Shown here piece after piece: positions 7,807 to 44,693 of a DNA stretch of 64,000 bases. Numbering within the stretch: the stretch's first letter is position 1; every line of letters starts with the position of its first letter. The notes under the pieces were generated by a model. The model saw nothing but the letters and a program-made list of their open reading frames with translations. It did not search any database and had not been told where the DNA came from. The stretch is taken from contig CAZOEZ010000001.1 of assembly GCA_964578995.1 (NCBI GenBank), positions 19,627 to 83,626 of the forward strand. The letters run 5' to 3'. This DNA comes from an uncultured archaeon (GTDB lineage: Archaea > Thermoplasmatota > Poseidoniia > MGIII > CG-Epi1). Position numbers and translations under genes: made by a program.

Positions 7807-9346
7807 GTTCACCGCGAACAAACATAATGTAGCGTTGTTCTTCATTCTCTTCAAAAGGATGTTGACCTATATTTCTTTGGTAAGCTACACCCATCCATGA
7901 ACCGTCTGGCGAAATAACTGTCTCAAAGAAATCATGCAGTGCATGAACATCACTATTTACTTCTTCATAATTTGTAACTGTGTGCAAAGGTGTTGAATCT
8001 GCTATCTCAAATTCCCAAGTGTCATTTAATTGTGGATTGTCTAAATATGCAGAATAAAGATACCAAGGTGTTCCTTCAGTATAGCCTGTGGAATTACCCG
8101 TTGCATAATCTAAACCATAGAAAGAAACAGCTATGCGATTTGTTTCACTTATAGACACAAAAGGATACATGGTTATTCCATCCCAATCAGGGGTTATTTC
8201 CCAAGTTGACCAATTAACTCCATAATCATAGGACAAAGCTATATTCATCTCCCATGCACCTACTTTCCCATCAGGGCAGTCCGCCCATACTACTGCAACG
8301 GTACCTTGTTCATTGGTATTGACCAAAGGATAACCTTCTGGTGGATTACCTTTTCTCTCACCAACGACTACAGGATCTTGCCAACTACCGTCTGATGGGC
8401 CTGGACCTGTACCCCTACCATAGTCATCACTTATCCTTACTATGACTGTGCCTGAAGTAGTATCTGCATTTTCTTGAGCCACATAAACATAGGAACCATT
8501 ACGTTGTGCTGCAATAGTAGACCAGCCTCCCGGCATAGAGTAACATTGCGAAAATGTAGTTCCACCATTTTCTGAATGATAATACCAATAACGCCCTGAA
8601 TCTATAGTACATTCTGGTGGAGGGGCTCCTGAATTACCCAAATAGTGAATTATGCCATCACCCTGTGCTGCTAACCATGGCCTATCATCTGCAGCCATGG
8701 AATTCATGCGTTGACAGACTCCCAGTTCATAGGAATTACCACCATCTGAAAATATATGCCACCAATTGTCTTCTAAAGTAGTATCTAAATAGTATATCAT
8801 GTCGTTAGAATCTACAGAAATATCACCTTCATCTCCTAAACATTCTGAACCACCAGCTGCATAATTAGCCATCAACATATTTCCAGGAGTTGGGTCAAAT
8901 TTATCTCCATGATCCCAAGTAAGGCCACCATCATTTGTTTTCCAAAACCATGAAGCCCAATAATCCCAGGATGTACTCTCACCATCTGTACAAGCATACC
9001 ACAATCCTGGATCATCCGGGTCAAGGAAAATAGGAATAGGTGCATCTTCACCACCCCACCTCAGATCCTTATGTGCTGTAACAAACATATTCCCTTTAGA
9101 ATCAAGTGAAAGACTAGGCTCATACCCAATACCGTATTCAGGATGTTCCTGCCCATTATTCTCATCAATGCATTCTTCATGTCTAGGCATGAAGACTGGT
9201 TCAAGCCATTCAATTCCTTTATTAGATTTTATTATGTCATTAATTTTCTGATCTATACCCTCATCAAACAATATGATAATCCCAGAAGCGGTTAGCATAG
9301 TAACGACAAAAGCAGCAAAAAATTTCTCTTTACCATAAACAAACAT
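7799..9346 (-). CDS. secreted BNR/Asp-box repeat beta-propeller protein (sialidase-like fold)
   Basis: 515 aa with an N-terminal hydrophobic anchor or signal sequence. It has three Asp-box motifs (TNDGGLTW, SENGGTTF, SYDYGVNW). It is rich in W/G/D. Confidence 0.55.
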   Translation of the reverse strand: MFVYGKEKFFAAFVVTMLTASGIIILFDEGIDQKINDIIKSNKGIEWLEPVFMPRHEECIDENNGQEHPEYGIGYEPSLSLDSKGNMFVTAHKDLRWGGEDAPIPIFLDPDDPGLWYACTDGESTSWDYWASWFWKTNDGGLTWDHGDKFDPTPGNMLMANYAAGGSECLGDEGDISVDSNDMIYYLDTTLEDNWWHIFSDGGNSYELGVCQRMNSMAADDRPWLAAQGDGIIHYLGNSGAPPPECTIDSGRYWYYHSENGGTTFSQCYSMPGGWSTIAAQRNGSYVYVAQENADTTSGTVIVRISDDYGRGTGPGPSDGSWQDPVVVGERKGNPPEGYPLVNTNEQGTVAVVWADCPDGKVGAWEMNIALSYDYGVNWSTWEITPDWDGITMYPFVSISETNRIAVSFYGLDYATGNSTGYTEGTPWYLYSAYLDNPQLNDTWEFEIADSTPLHTVTNYEEVNSDVHALHDFFETVISPDGSWMGVAYQRNIGQHPFEENEEQRYIMFVRGELN

Positions 9347-9479
9347 ATTATTATTTGTAATCTGGAGGGATATATAGAATAGTATGGATGCTAATATTTT
9401 ATAGTCGCGGAAAACTATACTAACTCCAGCATAATAGGAGAGGTCCTAATCTGCTAAGATTAAAAAAGCAAGGTGTGAA

Positions 9480-11372
9480 ATGGCAAGTCAACCACAAAGT
9501 TATGGTTCTATACGAGAATTCCTAGATAATTTGCCAAATCAACCATGTATCTGGCAACCCGAAAATGCTAATATTTGTGTCACTTGTTTGAGGATAAATG
9601 AACCTGTTGCAAGGGTTTGTTCTGTTTGGGCTCAGGCACTTGAAGAAGCTCCATTAGAAGAAATAGATTTTGAAGAAGAAGTACGATCCTTACCATCAGT
9701 CGTTGAAATCGAAGATGAATTCGAAATGGCAGAGAGTGTTGTCCCTACTTTAGGAACCACAGCTGCTGTTGCTGAAGTCGATATTGTTGAAACTAGTACT
9801 GATTGGGATATGGTTGCAGAACCTGTAATTGAGACTCCAACAGAAGAAATCACAGAAGAGGCCGTAGAAGAAGTCATTGAAGCTACTGAAGAAGTGGCGG
9901 AAGCTACGATTACAGAACCTGTCGCTGTTGAAGCTACTGAAGAAGTAGCAGAAGCTACGATTGCAGAACCTATCGAAGTTGAAGCTACTGAAGAAGTGGC
10001 GGAAGCTACGATTGCAGAGCCTGTCGAAGTTGAAGCTACTGAAGAAGTGGCGGAAGCTACGATTGCAGAGCCTGTCGAAGTTGAAGCTACTGAAGAAGTG
10101 GCGGAAGCTACGATTGCAGAACCTGTCGCTGTTGAAGCTACTGAAGTGGCTTTAGATACCATACAAGATGCAGTAGATGCTGAAACTATAGCTCAAGAAA
10201 AAGTTGAAAGTGCATCTGAAGCCGAAGAAGTTGCAGCCGAAGCTGTAGTTGAAGCCGTAAATACTGAAGCTGAAGCAGTTGAAGCATATGCAGATGCTGT
10301 GAAAGAAGAGGCCCAAGCTGCTGAAGCTGTAGTTGAAGCCGTCGAAGCTGAAGATGTAGCTACAGAAGCCGTAGTTGAGGCTACAGAACAGGTTACAGAA
10401 TTAATTGAAAAAGAAGCTGATGAAAGCGAAATACAAGAAGCTATAACTGAATTGAAAGAGAGTGTGGAGAAACAAGAAGAAGCTGAAGAGGTTCTAGCTG
10501 AAGCTGTTGTTGTAGAAGAAACTGCGGCAGAGGAAGTAGAAATTACATCAACTACTGAAAAAGAAGCTGCCGAAGTTTTGGAGAAAGCCATCGTAATTGG
10601 TGAAAAAGCTAGTGAAGATCTTGAAGAAGCGATAACCCAGGAAGAAGAGGCTGAAGAAGAAGTTAAAGAAACCATTGAAGCTTCAAAAGAATTAGGAACG
10701 GATGATGACGAAGCTGACACGGGAAGTGATGAGCCATTCATAGAGGGCGACAATGTAACTCATGGCGTTTATGGAAATGGCACTGTGTTGCAAGCAACAA
10801 AGGCAGGTAAGCATTGGTCTGTAGAAGTTGATTTCGAAGAAGGAAAGCGTAGAATTTTGGGAACATTCCTTACTCTAAACGAAGATAAAACTACAACACC
10901 AGAACCCAGCGAAGAATCTTTCAAGAAACCAGAATCTGAAGAAGAAAAAGAAGACGAAATAACCAAAGTCGTAGCTGATGTTGTGGAAGTAGACTATGGG
11001 GCATACAGTCCTGGAACTAAAATCACTCATGGAATCTTTGGAAAAGGTGAAGTTAAAGATAGCAAACCTAAGGGAGACAATTACAAATTAGAAATAGAAT
11101 TTGAAGATGGAAGTATGAGAAATCTACTTTCAACCTTTGTTGATATCTTTGATAAGGATAAAGATGTTTCTGAAACTACCGATGAAGTAGCCGAGGCTGT
11201 AGTTGCTGAACCTGTAGAAACTAAGACTACCGAAGAAGTGCTCGAAGCTGAAGCTACAGTTCTTGACACCGATGTTATTTACAGTAGACCTAAAGAAAAA
11301 GAGAAAGAAACAATACTTGATTTATCAAAGCCTGAAGTTCAAGATGCTGAGATGGTCGATGATGATGAATGA
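9480..11372 (+). CDS. hyper-acidic repeat protein with an N-terminal C4 Zn-ribbon-like motif and two Tudor-like domains (UvrD-C-terminal / RNAP-interacting-domain-like)
   Basis: 630 aa. The N-terminus carries C-x9-C-x2-C-x9-C. About 300 aa are E/A/V/T low complexity, including five perfect 17-aa repeats. Two copies of VTHGVYGNGTV...VEVDFEEGKRRIL...F are present, the second being ITHGIFGKGEV...LEIEFEDGSMRNL. A Shine-Dalgarno AAGGTG lies upstream. Confidence 0.6.
   Translation: MASQPQSYGSIREFLDNLPNQPCIWQPENANICVTCLRINEPVARVCSVWAQALEEAPLEEIDFEEEVRSLPSVVEIEDEFEMAESVVPTLGTTAAVAEVDIVETSTDWDMVAEPVIETPTEEITEEAVEEVIEATEEVAEATITEPVAVEATEEVAEATIAEPIEVEATEEVAEATIAEPVEVEATEEVAEATIAEPVEVEATEEVAEATIAEPVAVEATEVALDTIQDAVDAETIAQEKVESASEAEEVAAEAVVEAVNTEAEAVEAYADAVKEEAQAAEAVVEAVEAEDVATEAVVEATEQVTELIEKEADESEIQEAITELKESVEKQEEAEEVLAEAVVVEETAAEEVEITSTTEKEAAEVLEKAIVIGEKASEDLEEAITQEEEAEEEVKETIEASKELGTDDDEADTGSDEPFIEGDNVTHGVYGNGTVLQATKAGKHWSVEVDFEEGKRRILGTFLTLNEDKTTTPEPSEESFKKPESEEEKEDEITKVVADVVEVDYGAYSPGTKITHGIFGKGEVKDSKPKGDNYKLEIEFEDGSMRNLLSTFVDIFDKDKDVSETTDEVAEAVVAEPVETKTTEEVLEAEATVLDTDVIYSRPKEKEKETILDLSKPEVQDAEMVDDDE
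9879..10150 (+). repeat. 51-bp tandem repeat, five full units plus a partial one; units 3 and 4 are identical
   Basis: The unit gaagctactgaagaagtggcggaagctacgattgcagagcctgtcgaagtt repeats head-to-tail at 9879, 9930, 9981, 10032 and 10083. It lies inside the acidic-protein CDS and encodes ATEEVAEATIAEPVEVE. Confidence 0.9.
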
Positions 11373-11863
11373 AACTTTATTCTGAAAGATTAATCTTTCG
11401 TCAATTCAGAGCTGATGATAAAGAAATACTGATTGAATTACTAAATGATAAAGACGTAAGTAAATGGACGGAAAGAATTCCATTTCCTTATGAGGAAAAA
11501 CACGCTATTTGGTGGATTAATAACAAGCCTAAGAACAATTATGTATATGCAATTATTAGAAAAAATGGGAACTGCCTAATTGGTGGCACTAACATAACAT
11601 CCAAGGGAGAAATTGGTTGTTGGATTGGAAAGAGATACTGGAAAAAAAGATTTGCCACGGAAACTGTAGAAAGACTGGCACAATTTGGATTTGAAGAATT
11701 GAAATTAGAAAAAGTATGGGCTGCGACACACAAGGATAACAAAGCACCTATGAAAGTTCTAGAAAATCTTGGCTTCTCTAGGGTAGATGATAGACCATAC
11801 TATGTCGAAGGCATTGGCGATACTAAGATAAGACCACACTTTGAATTGACAAATAGCCCTTAA
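11369..11863 (+). CDS. GNAT family N-acetyltransferase (RimJ/RimL-like)
   Basis: 164 aa with the GNAT fold pattern (GCWIGKRYWKKRFATE, acetyl-CoA binding region). It overlaps the upstream stop by 4 nt. Confidence 0.75.
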   Translation: MKLYSERLIFRQFRADDKEILIELLNDKDVSKWTERIPFPYEEKHAIWWINNKPKNNYVYAIIRKNGNCLIGGTNITSKGEIGCWIGKRYWKKRFATETVERLAQFGFEELKLEKVWAATHKDNKAPMKVLENLGFSRVDDRPYYVEGIGDTKIRPHFELTNSP

Positions 11864-11889: not shown

Positions 11890-11965
11890 GGCCCTGTGGG
11901 GTAGTTTGGAATCCTTGTTGCTTTGGGAGCCATAGACCCCGGTTCAAATCCGGGCGGGGCCACCA
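11890..11965 (+). tRNA. tRNA-Pro (anticodon UGG), probable
   Basis: 76-nt cloverleaf. Acceptor GGCCCUG/CGGGGCC. D-arm GGGU/AUCC with a GG-containing loop. Anticodon loop UUUGGGA flanked by GC/GC. T-arm CCCGG-UUCAAAU-CCGGG. Discriminator A and an encoded CCA. One U-C mismatch in the anticodon stem lowers isotype confidence. Confidence 0.65.
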
Positions 11966-11970
11966 CTTTG

Positions 11971-12987
11971 TTAATACGCTGATTTTGTTGTTGTTATGAT
12001 TACAGCTGCAATCTTGTACGGATCTCCATTTGACGATGGCCTACGATCTTCAAGCCTCCCCTTCCAACCATCTTCTACAGTACCAACAGGTATCCGAATA
12101 GAGGCACCCCTGTCTGAAATACCATATGAGAACTCATGAATCGACTGTGTTTCATGAAGGCCAGTTAATCTTTGCTCATTATGGGCGCCATAAACGTCCA
12201 TATGCTTCTTAATATTCTTTCCAAAAGCCTCACATACTTTATTGAAAACTTTTTCATCACCACATTTTCTTAGTGTGCCGTCTGAGAAATTTGCATGCAT
12301 ACCTGAACCATTCCAATCTGTAGCCCCTAGCGGTTTTGGATGCCATTCTATAGCAATACCATATTTTTCAGCATTTCTTTCAGCTAAATATCGAGAAACC
12401 CATATCTCATCACCTGCATTTTTAGCACCCTTCGAAAATATTTGGTATTCCCATTGACCCGCTGCCACTTCAGCATTAATACCTTCTACATTCAAACCAG
12501 CATCTAAACACTGGTCAAGATGATCTTCTATTATCTCCCTACCAAAAGTATTCTTTGCACCAACAGAACAATAGAATTGACCTTGAGGTGTTTGATCTCT
12601 TGGAAAACCTAAGGGCAAATCTGTCTCCGGATCCCAAAGGAAATATTCTTGCTCAAATCCAAACCAGAAATCACTGTCATCATCATCTATAGTGGCTCGG
12701 GCATTCGTAACGTGTGGTGTACCATCTGCATTGTAAACTTCATTCATTACTAAATAACCATTTTTCCTATCTGGATCTGGATATATTGCAACCGGTTTAA
12801 GGAGACAATCTGAATCATTTCCCTCCGCCTGTCTAGTAGAACTTCCATCAAATGACCAATCAGGACAGTCCTTTAATTTCCCTGAAAATTTATTTCGAAT
12901 CAACGTTTTACTTCTAAGACTCTGTGTTGGTTCAAAACCGTCTAACCAAATATATTCTAGCTTTGCCGTCTTACTCATAATAATCAT
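11971..12987 (-). CDS. glnA: glutamine synthetase, type II (eukaryote-like GSII)
   Basis: 338 aa, collinear with eukaryotic GS. Matching segments include EYIWLDG...LRSKT, WSFDGSSTRQAEG, FGFEQEYFL, AEVAAGQWEYQI, WNGSGMHANFS, RLTGLHETQSI, RGASIRIP and EDRRPSSNGDPY. Confidence 0.85.
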   Translation of the reverse strand: MIIMSKTAKLEYIWLDGFEPTQSLRSKTLIRNKFSGKLKDCPDWSFDGSSTRQAEGNDSDCLLKPVAIYPDPDRKNGYLVMNEVYNADGTPHVTNARATIDDDDSDFWFGFEQEYFLWDPETDLPLGFPRDQTPQGQFYCSVGAKNTFGREIIEDHLDQCLDAGLNVEGINAEVAAGQWEYQIFSKGAKNAGDEIWVSRYLAERNAEKYGIAIEWHPKPLGATDWNGSGMHANFSDGTLRKCGDEKVFNKVCEAFGKNIKKHMDVYGAHNEQRLTGLHETQSIHEFSYGISDRGASIRIPVGTVEDGWKGRLEDRRPSSNGDPYKIAAVIITTTKSAY

Positions 12988-13004
12988 CTATAGATTGAGA
13001 CATA

Positions 13005-13016
13005 CTATATAAAAAA
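13005..13016 (-). promoter_or_regulatory. archaeal TATA box for the glutamine synthetase gene, on the minus strand
   Basis: Read on the minus strand it is TTTTTTATATAG, centred about 24 nt upstream of the glnA ATG at 12987. This is consistent with a leaderless or short-leader transcript. Confidence 0.4.
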
Positions 13017-13077
13017 CACTCTATATTTAGTTTAAAAGAGCAAAAAATAAGAAATAAATGATTATATACATAGTAAT

Positions 13078-13087
13078 TTATATATAG
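13078..13087 (+). promoter_or_regulatory. archaeal TATA box for the Lrp/AsnC regulator gene (leaderless)
   Basis: TTTATATATA is centred about 26 nt upstream of the ATG at 13108. There is no Shine-Dalgarno, consistent with a leaderless transcript. Confidence 0.4.
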
Positions 13088-13107
13088 GATGAACAAATGT
13101 TCAATTT

Positions 13108-13554
13108 ATGGAACTAAACAATAAAGATTCTGAACTTTTGCGATGCCTAAACAAAAATGGGAAAGCCTCACAAAGAGAATTGGCAGGTTTAACTGGGCTA
13201 GCTTTAGGTACCGTAAGTAACCATCTCAAATCTCTTGAAAAGAAAAATATCATCAGAGGTTACCTTCCAGATATTGATCCGGAAAGTGTAGGATTTACTC
13301 TTACGTCTACAATAAATTTAAGAATAAAGAAAGGTAAAATAATGGAAGTTCAGGCATCGATAGCTAAGCATCCAAGAGTCTATGCAGTCTATGATATTAC
13401 TGGTGAATGGGACTCATTAGTCCTAGCACGCTTTAAGGATAGAGAAGAGATGGATCAATTTATAAAAACTATATTATCACAAAAAAATATTGAACGTACT
13501 AGCACCTCTCTAGTACTTAATAATGTTAAAGAAGAACCCAGAATAATATTGTGA
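13108..13554 (+). CDS. Lrp/AsnC family transcriptional regulator
   Basis: 148 aa with an N-terminal HTH (SQRELAGLTGLALGTVSNHLKSLE) and a C-terminal RAM/ACT-like domain. It is divergent from glnA. Confidence 0.85.
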   Translation: MELNNKDSELLRCLNKNGKASQRELAGLTGLALGTVSNHLKSLEKKNIIRGYLPDIDPESVGFTLTSTINLRIKKGKIMEVQASIAKHPRVYAVYDITGEWDSLVLARFKDREEMDQFIKTILSQKNIERTSTSLVLNNVKEEPRIIL

Positions 13555-13590: not shown

Positions 13591-15000
13591 ATGAGGTGTG
13601 CAACTTTACTTCTTATTTTTACCTGCCTGATTATATCAATAAACGGAGAATCTGCAGAACCTGAACAGGTACATCTTGCAACAACAGGAATACCTGGAGA
13701 AATGGTAGTTCAATGGGGTACTGAAGAAGACACTACTTTCTCCTGCCCATCTGGCAATACTGTAGAATACGGAACCGATAACGACAATCTAAATCTATCT
13801 GAAAATGGAAATAATGATATGTATCTGTGGACTACATGTACACACACCACCTTGTTATCAAATTTAAACCCAAATACAACTTATTATTATCGAGTAGGTG
13901 AAGATGGAGAATGGAGCAACATTTATTCCTTCAAAACACTAGAAGAGAATCCTGGCAAAATTACAATTGGTGCTATTGCCGACCATGGAACCTCAAGTAA
14001 TGCTCAAGAAACCACTAGCCATATGGAAGGTGAAAATCTTGATCTAGTTATACATGCCGGAGATATATCCTATGCAAATGATGCCGGCTCAGGGAATGGG
14101 GTAGGTGACCAGAGCGTATGGGATGAATACCAAAACCAGATTGAAAGTTTAACATCAGAATCCCCTCATATGTATGCACCTGGAAATCATGAAGAAGATT
14201 CTGAGCCTTATGAATTTGATGCTTATGAAAGCAGATTCTTTAATCCAGGTCCAAACAGTTTTTGGTATAGTTTTGATTTTGAATTCATCCATTTTGTTTC
14301 TATTTCATCTGAGCATGATTATGAACCTGGAAGTACTCAACATACTTGGCTCAAAAATGATTTAGAGGATGCTAACGAAAATAGAGAAAATTATCCTTGG
14401 GTAGTCGTATTTGCTCATAGACCAATGTACAGCTCAAATGGGGATGGCGATGGCCATGGAAGTGAAATAGAATTTAGAGAAGCCATGGAAGGCTTGCTCT
14501 TTGATTACCAAGTTGACCTTGCAATTTGGGGACACGACCATCATTATGAAAGAACATACCCTGTTTTTGAAGAGGATGTTTATTCAAACAATAGTGGAAG
14601 CCAAAAAGACCCCTTTTACAAGCCAGGAGCTACAATCCACATAGTTGCAGGAATGGCCGGTAGATCTACATATGATGGATTGGAAGAACCACAGCCTTTG
14701 TGGTCAGCATATAGAGAAGTAACATACGGATATACTTTGTTTGAAGCGACGAAGACCAGCATAAACTACAAATTTATAAGGAATAGCGATTTGCAAATTG
14801 CCGATGAATTCTGGCTTGTAAATGAGATTGGAATACAAGAGCCTATAGAAACTCCTGGAACAAACTATAATCAAACAAACCAAACGGAAGATACAGGCCT
14901 CATCAACCAAATAAAAGAACTTAATTACCTAGGGGCACCGTTTAGTATTATAATTATAGCAATAACTGCTATATTTAATCTAAAGTTTAGAAAAAAATGA
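13591..15000 (+). CDS. secreted purple acid phosphatase-like metallophosphoesterase
   Basis: 469 aa with a signal peptide. PAP motifs present: GDISYAND, GNHE, FAHRPMYSS and GHDHHYER. A C-terminal hydrophobic anchor is present. Confidence 0.8.
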   Translation: MRCATLLLIFTCLIISINGESAEPEQVHLATTGIPGEMVVQWGTEEDTTFSCPSGNTVEYGTDNDNLNLSENGNNDMYLWTTCTHTTLLSNLNPNTTYYYRVGEDGEWSNIYSFKTLEENPGKITIGAIADHGTSSNAQETTSHMEGENLDLVIHAGDISYANDAGSGNGVGDQSVWDEYQNQIESLTSESPHMYAPGNHEEDSEPYEFDAYESRFFNPGPNSFWYSFDFEFIHFVSISSEHDYEPGSTQHTWLKNDLEDANENRENYPWVVVFAHRPMYSSNGDGDGHGSEIEFREAMEGLLFDYQVDLAIWGHDHHYERTYPVFEEDVYSNNSGSQKDPFYKPGATIHIVAGMAGRSTYDGLEEPQPLWSAYREVTYGYTLFEATKTSINYKFIRNSDLQIADEFWLVNEIGIQEPIETPGTNYNQTNQTEDTGLINQIKELNYLGAPFSIIIIAITAIFNLKFRKK

Positions 15001-28780: not shown

Positions 28781-30199
28781 ATGGGGGATTCTGAAAGCTC
28801 ATGGAGCTCTACCGTAATTAATGAGCAACTCCGTAAAAGGCTTGAATCACACAAGTCTGCAAAAGTTACTAACTTGGATTCGCAGCCCTGTATTGCTGTT
28901 AACATGCCATCTGGAAAAAATTTAACCTTTGATGGTGAAGCTGGCGATAATTTTGGAGGATTCAATAATGGAACAAATATTGTCCTAAATGGTGACGCAG
29001 GAAGATTTGTTGGAAACGGAATGAGTAAAGGTGAAATTATCGTAAATGGTAATTGTTATGATGGTGTTGGGCATTGTTTGTCAGGTGGTACTGTTGTAAT
29101 ACAAGGTTCAGTAGAGGGAAGTGCAGGACCTTCAATGAAGGGCGGTGATCTGATTATCTCAGGGAATATTCAAGGAGATTTAGCCACCTGTATGAGTGGT
29201 GGAAATCTAATTGTTTGTGGAGATGTTAGAGGAGATATAGGAAGAATGATGAGTGGTGGAAGAGCATTTATTTCAGGTGATTTCAATGATAATGAAAATC
29301 TAGAAACCAAGAATATAGCCCCAACTGATTGGAAAGCTATTCAAAAAACTCTCAGAGACTATGGTGTTGATCCTAATGGATTAAATTTTAAAACAGTTAG
29401 TGGAAAATTCAAACACAAAAAACTGCGAAAAGAAAAAACTGAGGATTATTCTATTGGTGATACATTAATGCTAGTTTATGCCAAACTCAGTAGAAGACCA
29501 AGAACTGTTAATCTGGATGATTTAGACTTTTCACTATCAATTGGAAATAATAAAGAACAACCACTGAATCTAACTATTCCATTATTATGGACTGGTAATA
29601 ATGCACCAATTTATTCAACGTGGGGAATAAATGAAAAATTTCCTAGTAATTTAGATTCAGCTAATATGGCTATAATCGATTTGAGTGCCACTGAAATAAA
29701 TCGAAGATTGGATATGAGAAGGCCAAACGACTTGGCTTTTGTTGTAGAATTAATCAGACAAAGTACTGCCAAAAGAATACCAATTATGGTTAGACTGGGT
29801 GCGGGTGACGTAGAAAATGACTTGAAAATAGTGGCAAAATCCGGGGCCGAAGGTGCAATTTTAACAAGTCGAGAAATGCCTCTCGAAGCTGCTGTAACTA
29901 CAGCAAGAAATTACAGAGAAAAACTTATTGTCTTAGCATCATGTCAAACATTAGATTATGAAATGGCTACTAAACTTATGGCTTTAGGAGCCTCGGGCCT
30001 ATTTTTTGAAGGTGATTGTACAAATGAGAGGCTGAAAACTTTCGGAATGAAGTTATCAGAAACTATTGGGTCTTTAGGTATTGGAAATATACGAGATTTG
30101 AATCCTGAAAACCTTAGAACAAACAATCAAGATACGGCAGCAATGACTGGCGTCCCAATAGCTGGATACGATTCTGTACTGCCTATGTGGCGTCACTAA
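28781..30199 (+). CDS. protein with a GXGXG-motif domain (glutamate synthase domain 3 / FwdC-like) fused to a degenerate GltS FMN-domain-like C-terminal half
   Basis: 472 aa. Repeated G-x-G-x-G beta-helix motifs fill residues about 50-170. The C-terminal half resembles the GltS FMN domain (IPIMVRLGAGDVENDLKIVAKSGAEGAIL, ALGASGLFFEGD) but lacks the GGTGA active-site motif. Confidence 0.55.
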   Translation: MGDSESSWSSTVINEQLRKRLESHKSAKVTNLDSQPCIAVNMPSGKNLTFDGEAGDNFGGFNNGTNIVLNGDAGRFVGNGMSKGEIIVNGNCYDGVGHCLSGGTVVIQGSVEGSAGPSMKGGDLIISGNIQGDLATCMSGGNLIVCGDVRGDIGRMMSGGRAFISGDFNDNENLETKNIAPTDWKAIQKTLRDYGVDPNGLNFKTVSGKFKHKKLRKEKTEDYSIGDTLMLVYAKLSRRPRTVNLDDLDFSLSIGNNKEQPLNLTIPLLWTGNNAPIYSTWGINEKFPSNLDSANMAIIDLSATEINRRLDMRRPNDLAFVVELIRQSTAKRIPIMVRLGAGDVENDLKIVAKSGAEGAILTSREMPLEAAVTTARNYREKLIVLASCQTLDYEMATKLMALGASGLFFEGDCTNERLKTFGMKLSETIGSLGIGNIRDLNPENLRTNNQDTAAMTGVPIAGYDSVLPMWRH

Positions 30200-31353: not shown

Positions 31354-33936
31354 TTAAATTTCTCCTTCTAAACCACATTCTGAACACTGAATTTGCTGCG
31401 TGCCAGAAATTTTAGGAATCTCCATATGTGCTGAACATTCAGGGCATTCAATGGTCATAGTCTCCAGAGGTGGTAGAGTTGCAGACTTAACTACTTTCCG
31501 AACTCTGCGTTCCTTTACAGGAGAAACTTCAGGAACAACCGATTCCATGAACCCAGATCCTGAAACAGGTTCGGGTTTAGCTGGTGGCTCATATGGTAAA
31601 GAATCATCCCGTCTCATATAGAAAACTGCACCTGCTATTCCTATAACTAACAGTAATCCTGCTCCTGCAATCAAAGGAATTGGCAATTCAGATTCAGATT
31701 TATCTCCTGATGGGGATTTTCCATTATTAGGTGTGGAATCGGCTACTATCGTGACCGTACAGGTATCTCTAGCAACGAGCCCATCATTATCAGTTACTCT
31801 AACAACTACTAAAAATGATGAATCAGGTGGTGTGTAATTATAGGAATGTACTGCAGTGCTTGAACCTTTAAAATCAACGGAATCGATATCTCCTGTAGTA
31901 CTATTGAAATCCCATTCATACAATACTATCCGCCCTCCTCCTTTATCACTAGCTAGCGCTGTGAACAATAAGTCATCCTCAAGTACCGCTTCTTCATCAC
32001 ATATTGCTGATACTATTGGTGGGGAAAGTATTTGAATGCTAATAGTAATAGACTCACTTGAAGCCCCTAATGAATCTGTAACCGTGAGATAAACATCATG
32101 CTCTCCAATATCTGCATCTGTAGTCGATACACTAGAACCATTATCAGAACTCTCATACAAATTTTGGCCATTGGCAAACAACAAAGACTCAGTTGTCCAA
32201 ATATAACTCAAAAGATTACCATCTGGATCTGTAGCATCTCCGAATAAAATAACACTATCACCAGCCACTACTGGATTAGGATTAACATCAACAGAACTAA
32301 GAACAGGAATGCCATTAATCAATACATTAGCTGTAACATTAGATGACCAAAAACCAATATCATTTATTGCTCGGAAAGTTATTGTGTGTTCACCTCTCGA
32401 TAACTCAGAGGTAGTAAATGTTGATTCCTCGGAAAGTTCACCATCTAAGCTAGAAAGCCACTGATATCCTATTACTTCAGTATCTTCTGAAGCTTCGGAA
32501 ACGGCTGAACCATTAAATTCAATAGATTCTCCCTCACTAATGACACAATTAGAAAATGATAAGCAGCCTGTGATAGAACCTATGCTTGCCTCCGGAAAGT
32601 CACCAATACCAATATTCATTGTTGATAATTTGCTCCAGCGACCTTCATTGTCTCTTGCGCTAAACGATATGACGTGATAACCCATACTCAGATTAGATAT
32701 TGTAAAATTAGATTCAAGAGATAAATTTCCATCAATATCTGAAGACCATAAATATTCCTCAATAGAACCATCCGAATCAATAGCTGAACCTATCATAGTA
32801 ACGGGTGTGTTAGGCAATGCCGTTGTTGGATTTATAGACTCAATATTTGCTACCGGTGCCTGATTGTCTAATTGACGTTCATAATAAATTGCTAAACCGT
32901 TTGAAGTACCTACTACTATATTTTCCCCACGATAAGACATTGCAACACTAAGAACATCTCCAAAGGCAGATATTCGCCACAATTCATCGCCATTTGATAC
33001 ATTAGCTAAAACTAATTTTTTGTTAGTTGAACCTGCAATCAGATACTTTGCATTTCCATTGAAATCAATTTCTGTAATTATGCCTCCAATATTTTTGTCC
33101 CATGCCTTAAATTCAGTAGACAAGTCAAGAACTGTGACTAAGCCTTGATCAGTTCCAAATGCATAATAATTCGAATCAAAACTACCGGAAACGCAAGTAA
33201 CTTCATCTTCTTGTCCCCATTCCAAAACAGGAGTGTCTCCCTCTGATTCATAAACATAAACTTTACCATTCTCAGAACCGATAATTAGATAATTACTATC
33301 ACCTGAAAAATCAAGACCTGTTATTTTACCGTCCAGAGTTCCTGAATGATACCATGATGCTGAAGAACTTGAGGTATTATAAACATATACATTACCATCT
33401 TCCGTTCCCGATGCAATATATTGATGATTTGGAGATATTGCAACAACAGTCATAGTATCACTTGCGTGATTGTCAACCCATATTCTATCATCTGAATTAG
33501 TGTTGAAATAGTATACATTTCTAAAATCGCTAACGGCTAAATAATTGCCATCAGGCGTCATATCAAGATCAACAACACTCAAGAAAAAATCGGTCTTTTC
33601 CCAATTTTTTGAACCTTCTTCCCACAAAGTCACAGTCGTATCTGTTTCTTCAGCAGTTACAACAAAACGGCCGTCTGAAGACATATCCATTGCCGAAATA
33701 CCCTGACCTACTGTTTTTGTATTATATGGGCTAGAAGTATGATTTCGCCAAAGTGAAATACTTTTCGCATAGGTTGCAGATACATTAACAGAATCATCAG
33801 ATATAGCTACTGCAGATATTCCAGATGATGTAGAATATTCCCAAAGTGGTTCCTTTTCAGCCTCAGCACTTGAAAAGACACACGTAAAGGCGACTAGCGT
33901 CAACATTACTAAACTTATTTTTTTCATTGGGAACAT
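31354..33936 (-). CDS. cell-surface protein: beta-propeller (PQQ/WD40-like) repeats plus PKD/Ig-like domains, a C-terminal TM and a cytoplasmic C4 zinc ribbon
   Basis: 860 aa with a signal peptide. It has repeated NVYVYNT and KVYVYESEGD propeller blades, Ig-like domains, the TM LLLVIGIAGAVFY, and the tail CPECSAHMEIPKISGTQQIQCSECG. Confidence 0.6.
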   Translation of the reverse strand: MFPMKKISLVMLTLVAFTCVFSSAEAEKEPLWEYSTSSGISAVAISDDSVNVSATYAKSISLWRNHTSSPYNTKTVGQGISAMDMSSDGRFVVTAEETDTTVTLWEEGSKNWEKTDFFLSVVDLDMTPDGNYLAVSDFRNVYYFNTNSDDRIWVDNHASDTMTVVAISPNHQYIASGTEDGNVYVYNTSSSSASWYHSGTLDGKITGLDFSGDSNYLIIGSENGKVYVYESEGDTPVLEWGQEDEVTCVSGSFDSNYYAFGTDQGLVTVLDLSTEFKAWDKNIGGIITEIDFNGNAKYLIAGSTNKKLVLANVSNGDELWRISAFGDVLSVAMSYRGENIVVGTSNGLAIYYERQLDNQAPVANIESINPTTALPNTPVTMIGSAIDSDGSIEEYLWSSDIDGNLSLESNFTISNLSMGYHVISFSARDNEGRWSKLSTMNIGIGDFPEASIGSITGCLSFSNCVISEGESIEFNGSAVSEASEDTEVIGYQWLSSLDGELSEESTFTTSELSRGEHTITFRAINDIGFWSSNVTANVLINGIPVLSSVDVNPNPVVAGDSVILFGDATDPDGNLLSYIWTTESLLFANGQNLYESSDNGSSVSTTDADIGEHDVYLTVTDSLGASSESITISIQILSPPIVSAICDEEAVLEDDLLFTALASDKGGGRIVLYEWDFNSTTGDIDSVDFKGSSTAVHSYNYTPPDSSFLVVVRVTDNDGLVARDTCTVTIVADSTPNNGKSPSGDKSESELPIPLIAGAGLLLVIGIAGAVFYMRRDDSLPYEPPAKPEPVSGSGFMESVVPEVSPVKERRVRKVVKSATLPPLETMTIECPECSAHMEIPKISGTQQIQCSECGLEGEI

Positions 33937-38972: not shown

Positions 38973-41900
38973 TTACTCGAGGGGGACTAAATCTATTTGG
39001 CAGCTATCTGTCAACCCAGCATCTGCTAATGATAAATTAACATCTACTGACGCTCCATTGAGCATAACTGCAAAATTTGAATGTGGTAATTGGAACTTAT
39101 CAATACAATTCTGCAACAATTTGTTAACAGGCATATTAGAAGGCACCTTGACATTTGCAGTCTTACCATCTACTGTGGATACTATAACAACTCCAATCTT
39201 AGAAGGTACTCCTTCATCGGGTTCGTCAATTTGACCATCACCATCATTATCTTTGCCATCTGATCCTTGAATACGAGCTCGCCTTCTTCTGACAATTGGA
39301 ATTGCGACCATCATAATCACTAGTCCAACTCCTGCCAAGAATGGCCAGAGTAATGGTACTCCCTTAATCAATTCTCTTTCCTGCAAGTCTGAAATGAATT
39401 CAATTTCTCCAAGAACTGCAGGCAATACCAGAGGTATAGTTTCCATATGCTCATCATTATCTGTGCCACCGCCTAAGATAGACTCATCACAAGTATTACA
39501 TTGATTTATTTCAAAACTACCACTTCCAGCATCAATAGTAAAAGTCAAATCAAGTTCATCCTTATTATCCTCATCTGGAACAGTCCAAGTGAATTTTACT
39601 TCAGTTGTATCTCCTTCGTTAATTGATTCACCTACTGAACTAGTTAATTCAGTACCTGTACCATCCTCAAACACAACAGTTAACGGTTTACTACTAATTT
39701 GCCAATCTGCATTACCTATATTCTCCAAAGTAACCGTTATCTCAACATCTTCTCCAACCTCAGGATTACGCGGATCCATTGCAACTTTCTTAATTTTGAA
39801 ATCTGGTAATATTTCGAATTTTACTTCTTTACTACTCTGTTCGAACACACCGGAACGTGGATACTCATTGTCTGTATAACGACCTAATTCGTCAAACATG
39901 CGATCTGTCTCGCCTGAAAAACCATCACCATCTGATTCACATTCGAAGTCTTGTATATTGTAATCGTCACAAATTGGATTGACTTCAGCTCTGAAAGTAG
40001 TCCATTCTTCCTCTGTTGCCTTCCAACGGAATCTTACATCTGTTGTTTCACCTGCATCGACATCAAAGTCAACATAATCTTTGTTTGTACGATCCTTGAG
40101 GATTTCATTATCTGCACTGCTATCTGCTGTGATATACAACCGAGCGCCCTGAACATCTGCAGCTCCAGTATTACTTACAGTAACTGTGAACGTTACAATA
40201 TCATCAACATTTGGTGTCTGTGCACTAGAACCTGCATATTTGGTATCTACTCTCATTGCATCTATAGCAAGATCAGGTTTTACTCTTAATAATTCCGAAT
40301 AACGTGCATCATTATTGTTCTCATTAGGTTCAAGTATCTCTCCATTATCGTTATCCTCATCATAATCTGAACGAACTTCGACATACCATTCTCCACCCTC
40401 AATCAACCAATCATCCGAAGCAACAGTCTTTTGGTTATTGGACTTGATATTCGTTGTCTTGTCATAAAGTGACTTGATGTATCCCTTTGCTTCATCCAAC
40501 TCAAAACCAGCTATCATCAATGCGTCAATCTCATTTTGGGTTTCAGGTGATTTCTTAGGATAATAGAAAATCTCAACACGGACGTCATCTGCATCTGCAG
40601 TACCTATATTCTCAACATCAACTAAGATAACAACGGTGTCTCCATCCTGAACCTGAGAAGCATTACCTATTGCACCATCAATCTCTAAGAGAATATTAGA
40701 TTGTTGAATAGTAAGTTCGGGCCTCTGCACAATTACAGTTAATGTAAGATCTTGAGTGGCACTAGGGTCGTCCTCTTCATCTCTAACTGATATCTGTATG
40801 GTGTAATTACCTTCGTCGGCTTCATCGGCAACTTCAACAAACACCCAAAGATCATCAAGCTCACCATCTTCAATAGATAGACCTGATGTTGTTGACCACG
40901 GTGAAGATTTAGAGCTGTCCTGCCAGTAAGTAACTTCCCAATCATCGTCTAGTGTGGAGACTGTTTCAGGTATGAATATATCTGGATTAGACCCTGTATT
41001 ATCCAATTTAACCTTAAATTTTACACTATTCTTCGTAGCTGAACCCTCATATTCAGGATAAATTTCCTGAACAAGATCAATAGCTGTAGCTGCCAAACTC
41101 CTTGTTGGAGCTGCAATATTGATTGTAACAATTGTAGTACTCTGTGTTTCTTCTTCAGCGTTTCTGACGGTGATAGACATAGTATAATTACCTTCATCGA
41201 CCACATCTGCATCTACTTCAGCAATAAACCAGAGTGATTTACTTTGATCTTTCTCTAAAGCTTGACCCGTAGCACTCCATTTATCGCTTGAAGAACCTGG
41301 ATTACCTGAATTCTTTGTAAAGAAATCTGATTCCCAACCAGAACCGAGAACATTGTCTAATTCTGCTGTAAATTTATCGTCGTGTGAACCTGTGTTAGTT
41401 ACAGTAATCTTGAAACGAGCTGTGTTCTTTTCTTCATTGTCTATTTCAGGAGATAAAGTAACTTCTTCTTCACCTGATGTAACTGATAAAGTTACTGCAC
41501 GTATTGGTTCTCTTACATCCAATGTAGTTTCTGCTTGAACCGCTGGTTCTGCTCCATTACCTGCAGATGCCTCAGTAATAACTGTGTAATTGCCAGCCTC
41601 TGAATCCACATCCGGTGTTATACAAAGATAAAGATATTTTGATTCTCCTGCACCAATGCTACCTGAGAAACTACCGCTTGAACATGAAGCAGAAGTGAAT
41701 ATAGAAACTGTCCACTCATCAGGATATGACGTAGCAACTGTTTCAACATTTACATTATCGTTTCTGTTACCTGTATTGACCAATTTGAGAGTGAATTTCT
41801 CTCTACGATCGTTTGCACTATCTTCTGTTGAAGGATAAGTAATAAGTGTATCACTACCAACTACTGTAAGACTAGCGCCATAAATCTGACCTATCTCTGT

Positions 41901-44693
41901 TGTCAATGTAGTAATCGCACTCTGTGCTAAATCACCAGCAGATTTTGCCTTAACCTGAAATTCATACTCAGCGGACGAGTCTTCAAGCGCGTCTCTTTCT
42001 TGAGCTGATAAGTTGTCTAAATCATATTCTGGTAATGCACAAGTTATGGTTATAGTTGCAGTGGCATCCTTTGCTAATTCAACTTCTGCAGGATTTGCTG
42101 TTACCCAATTAAGGTTATCTGAAAGTATAGATATCAAAATTGTATCCGTACCATCTCCTGTATTCTTAACATCTACACTGAAAACAGCGGAAGAACCTGG
42201 AATCTTCTCAATGGCCACTACATCTGCATTAATCTCGACACCGCGAGAAAGCTCAACTTTAACTGTCAAAGTTAAAGCGTCCTGTGATTTAGTTCCGTTC
42301 GCACAATCATCACAATTGGAAACTCCTGAAACATTTACAGAATAATCACCTTTTTCAGTTCCCTCTGGAACTGTTATTGAAAGCCCGACTAATCCTGTCT
42401 TCCCTTCCTGAACATTAAGGAAAGATGTGTTGAATTCTAGGGCAGTCCATCCAGACGGTGCTGTAACGGACATTGCAACAATATCATCTCCTGTTCCCAA
42501 ATTTTCTACACTTATAGATACGCTAACTGGAGTTCCAATAATTGCATCTACAGTACTGGAATCAACTGAAAGATCAATCCAATATTCTTGGTTAACAATA
42601 GTTGTAACGGCTACTGTAGTATTGACCCACTTTGGTGGATTTTCATCGGCTGCACCGAGTGAAGATGCTGTAATATTAGTCGTAAATGCCTGATTTTGCT
42701 CACCGGAAGGAATAGTGATAGTCAGATTAACTGTCTTTTCACTACCGGCAGCAACATCTTCGACATACTCTGATTCAAGTTGAACTATCCAATTTACAGG
42801 ATAATCATCAATCGAAAGTTTGAAAGAATCGGAACCAGTACCTTTGTTCTGTACCCTCATAGGATATATCAATTCAGAACCAGGATCTCCAGCCTTAGAA
42901 GAAACAATCATGTCAACTTTATACTGCTTATTTACAGAAACTGTAACTGAACTAGTATCATAAGCTGATGAAGAATCTTCTGAAGTTCCATTAACAGTTA
43001 TTATATTGTCACCAACGACTGCGTCTTCATCAATATTCACGGTCAGATTAACAGTTGTGCTTTCACCCTGCTCTAAATCTACATCTTCAACAATTGATCC
43101 CCAAGAGGCCATCTCTCCTTCAAGAGATAATGCAACTGTATCATCTGAATTACCTTTATTCTTTACTGTAATTGAATAACTTAATTGATCGCCGGGATCT
43201 CCTGATTGAGTTGTATCCCCTGAAACAGAAACAGATACTTCATAAATCTGATTAACGTTAAGAAAGACATCACGGTATTTACTAGTAGTTGCATCCTCTG
43301 ATGTCGCCTTGATAGTTATTTTATATCCATTTTGAGCCGATGTATCCTCTGGTGCTGTAACTCTCAAAGTTGTTGTTGTATTTGCTCCAGCTGCGAGGGT
43401 AAATGATGATTCACCTAAAGTACCCCAAGTAGCATTTAAACCTGTTAGAGACAATGAGATTTCATCTTCTCCATTGCCCTCATTTTCAATTGTTAAATTA
43501 TAAGTCACTTCGATTTCAGGATTGGCAGACTGGGTATCTCCACCAACAATCGTAATTTTTGGATCATAGTTTTGCAATACTGTTGAACGCGATGTAAATG
43601 TTTTGAAAACTGAAGTGTTCTCTTGTGACGATACCTTAACCTGTATAGTAGCAACAACATCTGCTGCCGCATCCTGTGGTGCCTTAACAACCAGTACATC
43701 TGTCAAAGTGATATTCTCATCAACACCAAGACTACTTACCTCATCATTGTCCAAAGAAGCTTCCCAACCTGTTGGTACACCGTCAGTGACTACAGACAAG
43801 TCAAAAGAGTCAACCGCATTACCCTTATTTGTCACCTTAAACGAATAATATACGCGCTTTCCAGCCTCAATATCCTGCGCACTAGAACCTACCTTTGTAA
43901 CCTCAAGTGCAGGCAATTGATTAACACGAACTGTAACTGAAATCGAATATGCCGTCTCCCCATCCTCTGAATTAGCATAGAAATTTATACTTTTCAATCC
44001 TGCAAGAGCTTCGATGTCTGGTGTAACACTGAAAGTAACTGTTGCTGATTCATCTTGATCTAAACTTACTGAACCTGGGAGCGTAAACGACCAATCGCTA
44101 GTACCAACTGAATCTTGAGAAAATGTTATGGTATCTTCAGTATTTCCTTTATCATTGACAACTGTAATCGAAAAAGTTGCATCATTATTAGGATCAACAC
44201 TGATTTGTGTTGTTCCTGCTGACAGTGAATTTCCATATATTTTCTTAACTTTAGAACTACCTGCTGCAGTTTCGTTATTGCTAGATTCTCCTGCTGACTG
44301 ACAATATACTGTAAATTGTTTAGTTTGACCGCCTTCTGCATTAGTCCTATTTCCTATCTCAACATAAAGTGTAACTGTTCCTGTAGATTCGTCACTAATA
44401 CTAATCTGGCTAGGAAGAATATACATTTCCCATCCTGTCGGAATTGTTGATGACATTCCTAAATTATATGTGTCATCTTCTGTACCATCATTATCGATTG
44501 TTACTGTATAAGTTAGTGTGTCTTCAGGTTCACCTTCTTGTTGTGTAGGAGATATTGTAACTGCATGTTCATAATCTACAGCCACAGCTCCGCCTGAGAT
44601 TAATACACAGAATAAACCTGCCATGACAAATGTCAAGGCGATTGCTAGCCAATTGGTTTGGTTTAAGCTCATTGCTATTTCCATCCATTTCAC
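38973..44693 (-). CDS. giant cell-surface adhesin-like protein (about 15 CARDB/DUF11-type Ig-like domains) with a C-terminal TM and a ubiquitin-like cytoplasmic tail
   Basis: 1906 aa with a signal peptide. It has recurrent V-x-N-x-G-x-x-x-D modules (ITVKNKGNSDDT, VDVKNTGDGTD, VDVENIGTADADD and others). The TM is LLWPFLAGVGLVIMMVAIPIV, followed by RRRR and a 75-aa beta-grasp-like tail. Confidence 0.7.
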   Translation of the reverse strand: MKWMEIAMSLNQTNWLAIALTFVMAGLFCVLISGGAVAVDYEHAVTISPTQQEGEPEDTLTYTVTIDNDGTEDDTYNLGMSSTIPTGWEMYILPSQISISDESTGTVTLYVEIGNRTNAEGGQTKQFTVYCQSAGESSNNETAAGSSKVKKIYGNSLSAGTTQISVDPNNDATFSITVVNDKGNTEDTITFSQDSVGTSDWSFTLPGSVSLDQDESATVTFSVTPDIEALAGLKSINFYANSEDGETAYSISVTVRVNQLPALEVTKVGSSAQDIEAGKRVYYSFKVTNKGNAVDSFDLSVVTDGVPTGWEASLDNDEVSSLGVDENITLTDVLVVKAPQDAAADVVATIQVKVSSQENTSVFKTFTSRSTVLQNYDPKITIVGGDTQSANPEIEVTYNLTIENEGNGEDEISLSLTGLNATWGTLGESSFTLAAGANTTTTLRVTAPEDTSAQNGYKITIKATSEDATTSKYRDVFLNVNQIYEVSVSVSGDTTQSGDPGDQLSYSITVKNKGNSDDTVALSLEGEMASWGSIVEDVDLEQGESTTVNLTVNIDEDAVVGDNIITVNGTSEDSSSAYDTSSVTVSVNKQYKVDMIVSSKAGDPGSELIYPMRVQNKGTGSDSFKLSIDDYPVNWIVQLESEYVEDVAAGSEKTVNLTITIPSGEQNQAFTTNITASSLGAADENPPKWVNTTVAVTTIVNQEYWIDLSVDSSTVDAIIGTPVSVSISVENLGTGDDIVAMSVTAPSGWTALEFNTSFLNVQEGKTGLVGLSITVPEGTEKGDYSVNVSGVSNCDDCANGTKSQDALTLTVKVELSRGVEINADVVAIEKIPGSSAVFSVDVKNTGDGTDTILISILSDNLNWVTANPAEVELAKDATATITITCALPEYDLDNLSAQERDALEDSSAEYEFQVKAKSAGDLAQSAITTLTTEIGQIYGASLTVVGSDTLITYPSTEDSANDRREKFTLKLVNTGNRNDNVNVETVATSYPDEWTVSIFTSASCSSGSFSGSIGAGESKYLYLCITPDVDSEAGNYTVITEASAGNGAEPAVQAETTLDVREPIRAVTLSVTSGEEEVTLSPEIDNEEKNTARFKITVTNTGSHDDKFTAELDNVLGSGWESDFFTKNSGNPGSSSDKWSATGQALEKDQSKSLWFIAEVDADVVDEGNYTMSITVRNAEEETQSTTIVTINIAAPTRSLAATAIDLVQEIYPEYEGSATKNSVKFKVKLDNTGSNPDIFIPETVSTLDDDWEVTYWQDSSKSSPWSTTSGLSIEDGELDDLWVFVEVADEADEGNYTIQISVRDEEDDPSATQDLTLTVIVQRPELTIQQSNILLEIDGAIGNASQVQDGDTVVILVDVENIGTADADDVRVEIFYYPKKSPETQNEIDALMIAGFELDEAKGYIKSLYDKTTNIKSNNQKTVASDDWLIEGGEWYVEVRSDYDEDNDNGEILEPNENNNDARYSELLRVKPDLAIDAMRVDTKYAGSSAQTPNVDDIVTFTVTVSNTGAADVQGARLYITADSSADNEILKDRTNKDYVDFDVDAGETTDVRFRWKATEEEWTTFRAEVNPICDDYNIQDFECESDGDGFSGETDRMFDELGRYTDNEYPRSGVFEQSSKEVKFEILPDFKIKKVAMDPRNPEVGEDVEITVTLENIGNADWQISSKPLTVVFEDGTGTELTSSVGESINEGDTTEVKFTWTVPDEDNKDELDLTFTIDAGSGSFEINQCNTCDESILGGGTDNDEHMETIPLVLPAVLGEIEFISDLQERELIKGVPLLWPFLAGVGLVIMMVAIPIVRRRRARIQGSDGKDNDGDGQIDEPDEGVPSKIGVVIVSTVDGKTANVKVPSNMPVNKLLQNCIDKFQLPHSNFAVMLNGASVDVNLSLADAGLTDSCQIDLVPLE

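Follow-up and report, generated by a model that had tools for sequence, protein, structure and literature searches.

How a type II glutamine synthetase (GSII) gene came to lie directly beside a tRNA gene in a marine archaeon, and whether it was delivered there as part of a genomic island, are the questions raised by the stretch of DNA analyzed here, a 64-kb segment (hereafter, the window) of a Marine Group III (MGIII; Poseidoniia) archaeon. Ammonium enters cell material through glutamine synthetase (GS), whose type I (GSI) is the usual archaeal form, and Poseidoniia rank among the ocean's most abundant archaea. A first-pass annotation of the window had noted a GSII open reading frame (ORF) whose stop codon faces the 3' end of a tRNA-Pro gene, and had read it as a eukaryote-type enzyme that was acquired horizontally at this tRNA. 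Our analysis supports a different answer. The ORF appears to encode an intact type II GS, predicted to form glutamine from glutamate, ammonium and ATP, and its gene seems to have been exchanged horizontally within MGIII, where it would have been repeatedly replaced in place by divergent alleles; we assign this reading as a whole a probability of about 0.75. The sequences themselves are mosaics with boundaries at conserved elements. The locus is composed of the following features (window coordinates, strand, description):

11369-11863, plus strand, GNAT acetyltransferase gene (Acetyltransf_3; Pfam PF13302, 1.5e-26), left neighbour of the tRNA gene
11890-11965, plus strand, tRNA-Pro (UGG; anticodon TGG) with encoded CCA (ARAGORN; Rfam RF00005, 47.7 bits)
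11966-11970, spacer of 5 nt from the tRNA 3' end to the GS stop codon (sequence)
11971-12987, minus strand, GSII ORF of 338 aa, type a allele (ORF call; Pfam, NCBIfam and PDB matches)
12988-13107, divergent GS/lrp intergenic region of 120 nt (alignment of seven MGIII loci)
13108-13554, plus strand, Lrp/AsnC-family regulator gene (Pfam HTH_24 and AsnC_trans_reg)

A fixed slot filled by four GS types

The host is assigned to MGIII because the nearest labelled relatives of the window GS belong to an MGIII single-cell genome and to MGIII metagenome-assembled genomes (MAGs), with 93-95% identity, and because the window carries core genes of an archaeal chromosome (PheRS, AspRS, primase, L21e, Pus10, a Kae1-type gene and a RIO-type kinase, among others). 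We scanned metagenome contigs with the last 25 nt of the window tRNA-Pro and recovered 77 contigs, 73 of which extended more than 100 nt downstream and were therefore informative. GSII lay directly past the tRNA gene in all 73, so that no empty tRNA-Pro site was found among them, and Lrp followed wherever the contig reached that far. The order GNAT, tRNA-Pro, GSII, Lrp is kept in all MGIII genome loci, including the deep-branching locus L006 (loci are designated by L numbers); GNAT precedes tRNA-Pro in all related loci with sufficient left flank, and the tRNA gene is convergent with the adjoining GSII gene in every MGIII locus found. The length of the spacer between them depends on the GS type in the related loci, being mostly 8-16 nt and at most 75 nt.

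The proteins encoded in this slot fall into four discrete types, defined by their identity to the window protein:

Type a, 90-100%, the window's own type
Type b, 85-88%, the type of locus L006
Type c, 73-75%
Type d, 71-73%

These form two deep lineages, a/b and c/d, that are 71-76% identical in protein sequence. In the tree of GS types, c and d group with a bootstrap of 100 and a and b with 82, and the backbone connecting them to the Marine Group II (MGII) and bacterial groups is weakly supported. By parsimony, the ancestral type is d for one major clade of flanks and either a or c for the clade of the window.

Probable replacement of GS in place by divergent alleles

The evidence for replacement comes from pairs of loci whose flanking genes are close relatives and whose GS genes are of different types. 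Protein identities for Lrp, the methyltransferase (MT) and GS are the following:

L005 (type a) and L231 (type d): Lrp 98%, MT 97%, GS 71%
L227 (type a) and L240 (type d): Lrp 95%, MT 99%, GS 74%
L001, from a single-cell genome (type a), and L188 (type d): Lrp 91%, MT 96%, GS 73%
L224 (type a) and L179 (type c): Lrp 97%, MT 92%, GS 74%
L248 (type b) and L224 (type a): Lrp 99%, MT 98%, GS 87%

Sliding nucleotide identity between loci stays at 90-100% in the flanks and falls to 55-80% in the GS region, with sharp breaks past the tRNA gene and at the GS TATA box. In the pair L005/L231 there are no differences through the tRNA gene and 5 further bases, divergence sets in from the GS stop codon, and near-identity resumes with the GS TATA box, which precedes the start codon by about 25 nt; the exchanged unit is the ORF plus a short leader, about 1.05 kb in all. 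When the window is compared with L232 (type c), the right break lies past lrp, and hence GS and lrp moved together.

Changes of this kind were counted on a tree of Lrp and MT from 35 loci, on which parsimony requires at least nine changes between a/b and c/d and 13 among the four types, and on which sister pairs reach a bootstrap of 100. The presence or absence of a phosphatase gene, mapped on the same tree, takes only two changes. This gene, for a purple acid phosphatase (window 13591-15000, plus strand), lies between lrp and a thioredoxin gene and is found in one major MGIII flank clade only. As a control, MGII loci were analyzed likewise and none of 159 pairs was discordant between GS and flanks, which indicates that the discordance signal is not created by the method.

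The GNAT gene is itself mosaic in L224/L179 and L227/L240, where the equivalents of window 11369-11863 show patches of 46-80% nucleotide identity in a background of 90-100%; the recombining zone may extend across the tRNA gene into GNAT.

The mosaics would have originated by recombination, most likely homologous, with the conserved tRNA gene as the homology arm on one side and the promoter or lrp on the other. Through such events the GS ORF would be swapped by deeply divergent alleles, at times together with lrp, and no integrase or mobile element would be involved. The tRNA gene is invariant for reasons of its own, and crossovers may therefore favour it or merely be invisible inside it.

Several points weigh against this reading. 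Apart from one single-cell genome, the loci are all derived from metagenome assemblies or MAGs; the window GS, with 364.7 bits, misses the NCBIfam equivalog cut-off for GlnII (500 bits); no donor more than 81% identical to types c/d was found among the labelled genomes compared; and the GS trees are neighbour-joining trees with a weak backbone (bootstrap 29-45), on which archaeal monophyly, the direction of the old transfer discussed below and the source of each allele lineage depend.

The first of these points leads to an alternative in which the swaps are assembly chimeras, the assemblers having jumped between co-occurring MGIII strains at the tRNA gene and at the promoter. The tRNA gene is indeed a near-invariant 76-nt repeat common to all strains, and the loci are mostly short metagenomic contigs. 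However, each mosaic would need two joins, the second of them in a region with short invariant blocks only, and further observations speak against this alternative: (i) L229 and L250, from independent assemblies, carry one combination and are 98.2% identical over 5.1 kb, (ii) L177, L181 and L245 carry one flank/GS combination, again in independent assemblies, (iii) type a is present in the single-cell genome (L001), with flanks matching those of a type d contig (L188), (iv) types b, c and d are present on contigs of 36-406 kb, and (v) the MGII loci gave no discordance under the same analysis. We therefore consider chimeras a very unlikely explanation, and retain repeated replacement in place as the preferred one.

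The tRNA gene as a boundary and the island hypothesis

The first-pass annotation had pointed to another role for the tRNA gene, tRNA 3' ends being classical integration sites; on the corresponding model, GSII arrived lately as the cargo of an integrative element targeting the 3' end of tRNA-Pro. The annotation's description of the geometry proved accurate, as ARAGORN, Rfam, the ORF call and the sequence agree in placing the GS gene 5 nt past the tRNA 3' end, and the exchanged segment likewise starts directly past the tRNA gene. The gap is uninformative alone, because coding sequence fills about 96% of the window: neighbouring ORFs are separated by a median of 2.5 nt, and 31 of the 56 gaps measure 5 nt or less. 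Other observations speak against an island: (i) none of the called genes and ORFs that were checked in the 64-kb window encodes an integrase or recombinase; (ii) no direct repeat of the tRNA 3' end was found, the single match, with three mismatches, lying within a Nudix-box ORF; (iii) the GS gene has no composition anomaly, with a GC content of 39.2% (window, 37.3%), a GC content at third codon positions (GC3) of 26.3% (window, 26.3%) and a codon-usage z of +0.53, each in line with the window average; (iv) the slot was occupied in 73 of 73 informative contigs and never empty, the tRNA-Pro gene flanking it in every MGIII relative, and the gene is thus not patchy; and (v) the right-hand boundary is not constant, lying at the GS promoter in some comparisons and at the end of lrp in others, which fits homologous crossovers and not site-specific ones.

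Taken together, these results make a tRNA-targeted island scarcely credible. What stands of the earlier proposal is a horizontal history and an exchanged segment that does begin a few nt past the tRNA gene; what does not stand is the integration event, in whose place the data point towards homologous replacement.

Identity and integrity of the enzyme

The motifs on which the initial assignment had been based (EYIWLDG, FGFEQEYFL, WNGSGMHANFS, RGASIRIP and EDRRPS..DPY) were all found in the GS translation. The protein matches Gln-synt_N (PF03951, 46.4 bits) and Gln-synt_C (PF00120, 72.4 bits), both over their cut-offs, and the distinction from the archaeal GSI was upheld by two comparisons: among NCBIfam models it scores 364.7 bits with GlnII (model positions 3-331 of 333) versus 58.5 with type I and 49.3 with type III, and among PDB entries its matches to GSII structures range from 1e-88 to 1e-72, whereas those to GSI structures are no better than 1e-10. 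Its 338 aa also fall in the short size range of GSII, about 330-370 aa. A tblastn search of the 64 kb detected no second GS in the window.

Thirteen residues were checked against the maize enzyme (2d3a) and all are the same: D47, E112, E114, Y139, E173, E180, H231, R273, E279, R293, R298, E313 and R315. By reference to the maize and human structures, they are assigned to the metal, ATP, glutamate and ammonium sites. Two PROSITE GS signature patterns match at residues 46-63 and 218-235. The catalytic residues checked are kept in all four MGIII types, and by homology the enzyme should be a decamer.

Given its score below the GlnII equivalog cut-off, and given that relatives are named by NCBI merely as "glutamine synthetase beta-grasp domain-containing protein", the window protein could alternatively belong to the GS-like amide ligases and act on another substrate, as a gamma-glutamyl-polyamine synthetase would. 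Such ligases, however, were represented in the scan and reached only low scores (28.7 bits for gamma-glutamylputrescine synthetase), whereas the window protein is collinear over its full length with solved GSII enzymes, shares with the maize enzyme every residue checked at the metal, ATP, glutamate and ammonium sites, and matches both signature patterns. We hold a different substrate to be highly improbable, and an intact type II GS remains the preferred assignment. On these scores, the clade to which the protein belongs (see below) is best described as a divergent branch of GSII.

The differences between the two allele lineages are concentrated in one part of the protein. Fixed differences between a/b and c/d number 21, of which 19 lie within residues 118-223, and three of the lineage-fixed changes, F138Y, A172Q and Y181F, adjoin the active-site residues Y139, E173 and E180. 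A tentative extension of the replacement reading, which we regard as possible but with the odds against it, is that a/b and c/d are functionally different isoforms that selection maintains in MGIII populations and that pass between genomes as a one-gene cassette for switching between nitrogen niches, akin to what was proposed for the tuning of proteorhodopsin. The isoforms might differ, for example, in ammonium affinity, feedback control or sensitivity to GS-targeting toxins.

A marine prokaryotic GSII clade and its deep history

The first-pass annotation had described the enzyme as eukaryote-type, a label that we find misleading. Relatives were collected by a scan of one genome per species, which found 588, and the groups were described from the best 80 of them. 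Within these 80, Poseidoniia account for 41 contigs plus one partial contig (MGIII, MGIIa and MGIIb; 80-95% identity), followed at 74-80% by marine Bacteroidota, Gammaproteobacteria, SAR202 and Marinimicrobia. Eukaryotic enzymes are about 47-50% identical to the window GS, and among 1.8 billion cluster representatives searched, the top one beyond the marine clade is at most 57% identical. By these identities the window GS is a member of a marine prokaryotic clade and hence not specifically eukaryote-type; phylogeny places it in a type II clade that comprises marine bacteria as well as archaea.

By neighbour-joining, a first tree places the marine clade on a long stem with a bootstrap of 100; in a second tree its bootstrap is 74, and that of the clade together with the giant-virus-like sequence L088 is 98. 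The groups within the clade are about equidistant, with a mean identity of 0.74-0.81, compared with 0.47 to the outgroups (Streptomyces and yeast included). In the contigs of SAR202 and Marinimicrobia, the gene after GS is that for RecN, which argues that the bacterial contigs of the clade are truly bacterial. We propose that the GSII of this clade spread between bacterial phyla and Poseidoniia archaea through old inter-domain transfer, and that the composition of the gene would have since adjusted to its host. Extensive early gene transfer from bacteria to MGII/III has been documented (PMC4122925).

How many such gains there were is a separate matter. In MGII genomes GSII occupies two other stable contexts, one in MGIIa and one in MGIIb, which are distinct from the MGIII slot. 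Poseidoniia could accordingly have gained GSII repeatedly, with MGIIa, MGIIb, MGIII a/b and MGIII c/d each obtaining it from different marine bacteria, in contrast to a single gain in the common ancestor followed by exchange among archaea. Besides the three distinct contexts, repeated gain would be in agreement with the low bootstrap of archaeal monophyly (32, with one or two informative columns in favour and none or one opposed), with the failure of types c/d to group with a/b and MGII in the tree, and with the top labelled match of type c outside MGIII, which belongs to Cytophagales (78-80%). Nevertheless, bacterial sequences are at most about 80% identical to any archaeal type, so that a recent donor is not visible; the half-sites TGAAC/GTTCA described in the next section are enriched before GSII in both MGII and MGIII (1.95 vs 0.46 per 209 nt), and a related 9-mer had no match in 36 bacterial upstream regions; moreover, one slot and one promoter architecture are common to all four MGIII types. 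On balance we judge repeated gain unlikely. Replacement within MGIII, as set out above, concerns the later history of the gene.

A viral vector for GSII was considered and rejected, as the relatives in IMG/VR are just 47-70% identical and the best-scoring one, L088, falls outside the marine clade. The L088 sequence is of interest in its own right. It is a giant-virus-like contig of 64 kb (IMGVR_UViG_3300035696_000745) with a GSII at 7995-9023 whose identity is 64-71% to the marine prokaryotic clade and 54% or less to other GSII, and which is sister to the whole clade (bootstrap 98); further products of the contig are Thg1, a monomeric PheRS, PARP, Kelch repeats and a GIY-YIG endonuclease. Among the bacterial contigs, L043 (binned as SAR202) and L045 (binned as Marinimicrobia) both carry GSII and then RecN at about 9090-10800, and their GSII are sisters (bootstrap 96); this likeness would reflect either a transfer between phyla or a binning error.

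Proximity of GSII to tRNA genes was observed in two separate contexts, beside tRNA-Pro in MGIII and beside tRNA-Ala in MGIIb. In many MGIIb genomes (L007-L034, e.g. L007:6123-7741), a tRNA-Ala(GGC) gene lies 230-430 nt upstream of GSII, with tRNA-Arg(TCT) beyond it, and in L021 (9018-9092) GS is inverted and the tRNA-Ala gene is convergent, 7 nt past GS. A search of the MGIIb loci for repeats of the tRNA-Ala 3' end gave nothing beyond one chance-level match with two mismatches in L008.

The Lrp regulator and the divergent promoter region

The divergent pairing of GS with an Lrp/AsnC-family gene, also reported by the first-pass annotation, was borne out by both Pfam domains, and Lrp adjoins GSII in all MGIII loci. 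Its top NCBIfam match is TranRegLrp_Halo (NF041396) with 119.9 bits, the next model reaching 50.7 and the equivalog cut-off being 190, and ungapped alignment with a haloarchaeal Lrp scoring above this cut-off gives 39% identity. The homologues retrieved by protein search were MGIII sequences only.

The GS/lrp intergenic region has a mean column identity of 81% in seven MGIII loci, with conserved blocks, and about 55 further loci share the same architecture. The elements predicted within it are:

13005-13016, minus strand, putative GS TATA box TTTTTTATATAG, invariant in the seven-locus alignment and in all four GS types
13077-13086, plus strand, putative lrp TATA box TTTATATATA, an invariant block about 26 nt before the lrp ATG
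13090-13103, perfect 14-bp palindrome TGAACAAATGTTCA, putative Lrp operator, lying past the lrp TATA box and before the lrp ATG

The two TATA boxes would act as the promoters of GS and lrp, and the former is also the right boundary of the smallest exchanged segment. The true start of GS is probably the ATG at 12978 (MSKTAK...), rather than position 12987, because homologues begin with MSK and this ATG is about 31 nt from the conserved TATA box upstream of it. The distance of about 26 nt between the lrp TATA box and its ATG implies a leaderless lrp mRNA. Apart from the tRNA, Rfam detected no riboswitch or other RNA family near the GS gene.

The palindrome TGAACAAATGTTCA is unique in the window, with one exact match and with matches at two mismatches at chance level, and in all four GS types its half-sites, TGAAC/GTTCA, are conserved and its 4-nt centre is variable. 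Lrp would bind it as an operator and would probably control GS expression by nitrogen status. The same half-sites are about fourfold enriched within 200 nt upstream of GSII in MGII (L007-L041), where no Lrp gene is adjacent, which suggests a shared regulator encoded elsewhere. In those loci they are often found directly upstream of a TATA box, as in GTTCAnnnGTTCAGACTATAAAC, and in MGIIa a gene for a protein with HTH_3 and CBS domains lies divergently upstream of GSII.

Other features of the window

The GNAT gene is preceded by that of an extremely acidic 630-aa protein (9480-11372, plus strand) in which a 17-aa unit, EATEEVAEATIAEPVEV, is repeated in tandem about five times, and which has a Pfam match to the PcrA/UvrD tudor domain; the protein is kept in MGIII relatives but is highly variable. 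At 28781-30199 (plus strand) lies the gene of a 472-aa protein with a GXGXG domain, a domain that occurs in formylmethanofuran dehydrogenase subunit C and in the C-terminal domain of glutamate synthase; its Pfam and NCBIfam matches are confined to the first 170 residues. An 860-aa protein with many beta-propeller matches is encoded at 31354-33936 (minus strand), with an ArsR-family gene adjoining, and a 1906-aa protein, probably a surface protein, at 38973-44693 (minus strand), with a CARDB domain and weak or faint immunoglobulin- and fibronectin-like matches.

Significance and comparison with known systems

The textbook picture of archaea as carriers of type I GS would need correction for Poseidoniia, whose GS as found here is of type II and is common to them and marine bacteria, and this affects the assignment of GS genes and transcripts to organisms in marine metagenomes. 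The repeated swaps suggest that a core single-copy metabolic gene can act as an exchangeable cassette in streamlined genomes. With its defined boundaries (tRNA gene and promoter) and a candidate regulator and operator, the locus offers a testable case of adaptation at the level of alleles.

Part of this was known. The enzyme family is established, and GSII in Poseidoniia had been noticed before. In the ocean sampling data of 2007, type II GS was unexpectedly abundant on bacterial scaffolds (Yooseph et al., PMC1821046), a GSII phylogeny of 2010 knew no archaeal member (PMC2978018), and "GS type II" was mentioned in passing on an MGII contig and called "of eukaryotic origin" (Pereira et al. 2019, PMC6741140). 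The first and the last of these reports resemble ours in finding GSII on prokaryotic marine scaffolds, and the gene context that we find in MGIIb corresponds to that of the Pereira contig (D-amino-acid oxidase, DUF92/COG1836). Neither describes the MGIII locus, its flanking tRNA and Lrp genes or the replacement of alleles, and a eukaryotic origin is unsupported by the identities given above. The literature searched contained no paper on the GS type of MGIII, only these passing MGII and ocean-sampling mentions. As far as this literature goes, the novelty lies in the tRNA-Pro/GSII/Lrp module, constant throughout MGIII, and in the recurrent in-place replacement of its GS, whereas the process itself is known.

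The enzyme is closest in kind to the bacterial GlnII of Streptomyces, Rhizobium and Frankia (structure 4bax), which belongs to the same two-domain fold family, has a similar length (344 vs 338 aa) and aligns over its full length (1.9e-88). It differs in being only about 48-50% identical, the window GS belonging to a separate marine clade and to an archaeal host.

The Lrp pairing has its counterpart in haloarchaea. In Halobacterium, Lrp adjoins glnA and activates it (Schwaiger et al. 2010, PMC2894021), the same lrp-glnA arrangement is found in other haloarchaea (PMC8229911), and in Sulfolobus a glutamine-sensing Lrp binds glnA promoters (PMC3584215). The MGIII Lrp is of the haloarchaeal subtype by its best NCBIfam match, adjoins the GS gene in opposite orientation and appears to be translated from a leaderless mRNA, as mapped for Halobacterium lrp. 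However, the partner is GSI in haloarchaea and GSII here, the Lrp proteins are only 34-39% identical, with a score under the equivalog cut-off, and the regulation in MGIII is putative. No GS gene was seen beside plasmid-borne haloarchaeal lrp in the copies inspected. The lrp gene may be the native partner, GSII having originally displaced an ancestral GSI beside it.

With tRNA-integrated genomic islands, the locus shares the start of variable DNA a few nt past a tRNA 3' end. It lacks their integrase, att repeat and compositional signal, its slot is always filled, its far boundary varies, and its exchanged unit is a single ORF of about 1 kb.

The closest parallel is the "overwrite" of proteorhodopsin at a constant genomic position that was proposed for Poseidoniales (Rinke et al. 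2019, PMC6461757), a form of xenologous displacement in situ. There, as in MGIII, a single-copy gene in a conserved neighbourhood is swapped for a divergent homologue, and closely related genomes carry differing versions. The present case differs from it in that the gene encodes a central enzyme of nitrogen assimilation, in MGIII instead of MGII, and in that the boundaries could be resolved to a tRNA gene and a promoter, with parsimony calling for at least nine events in 35 loci.

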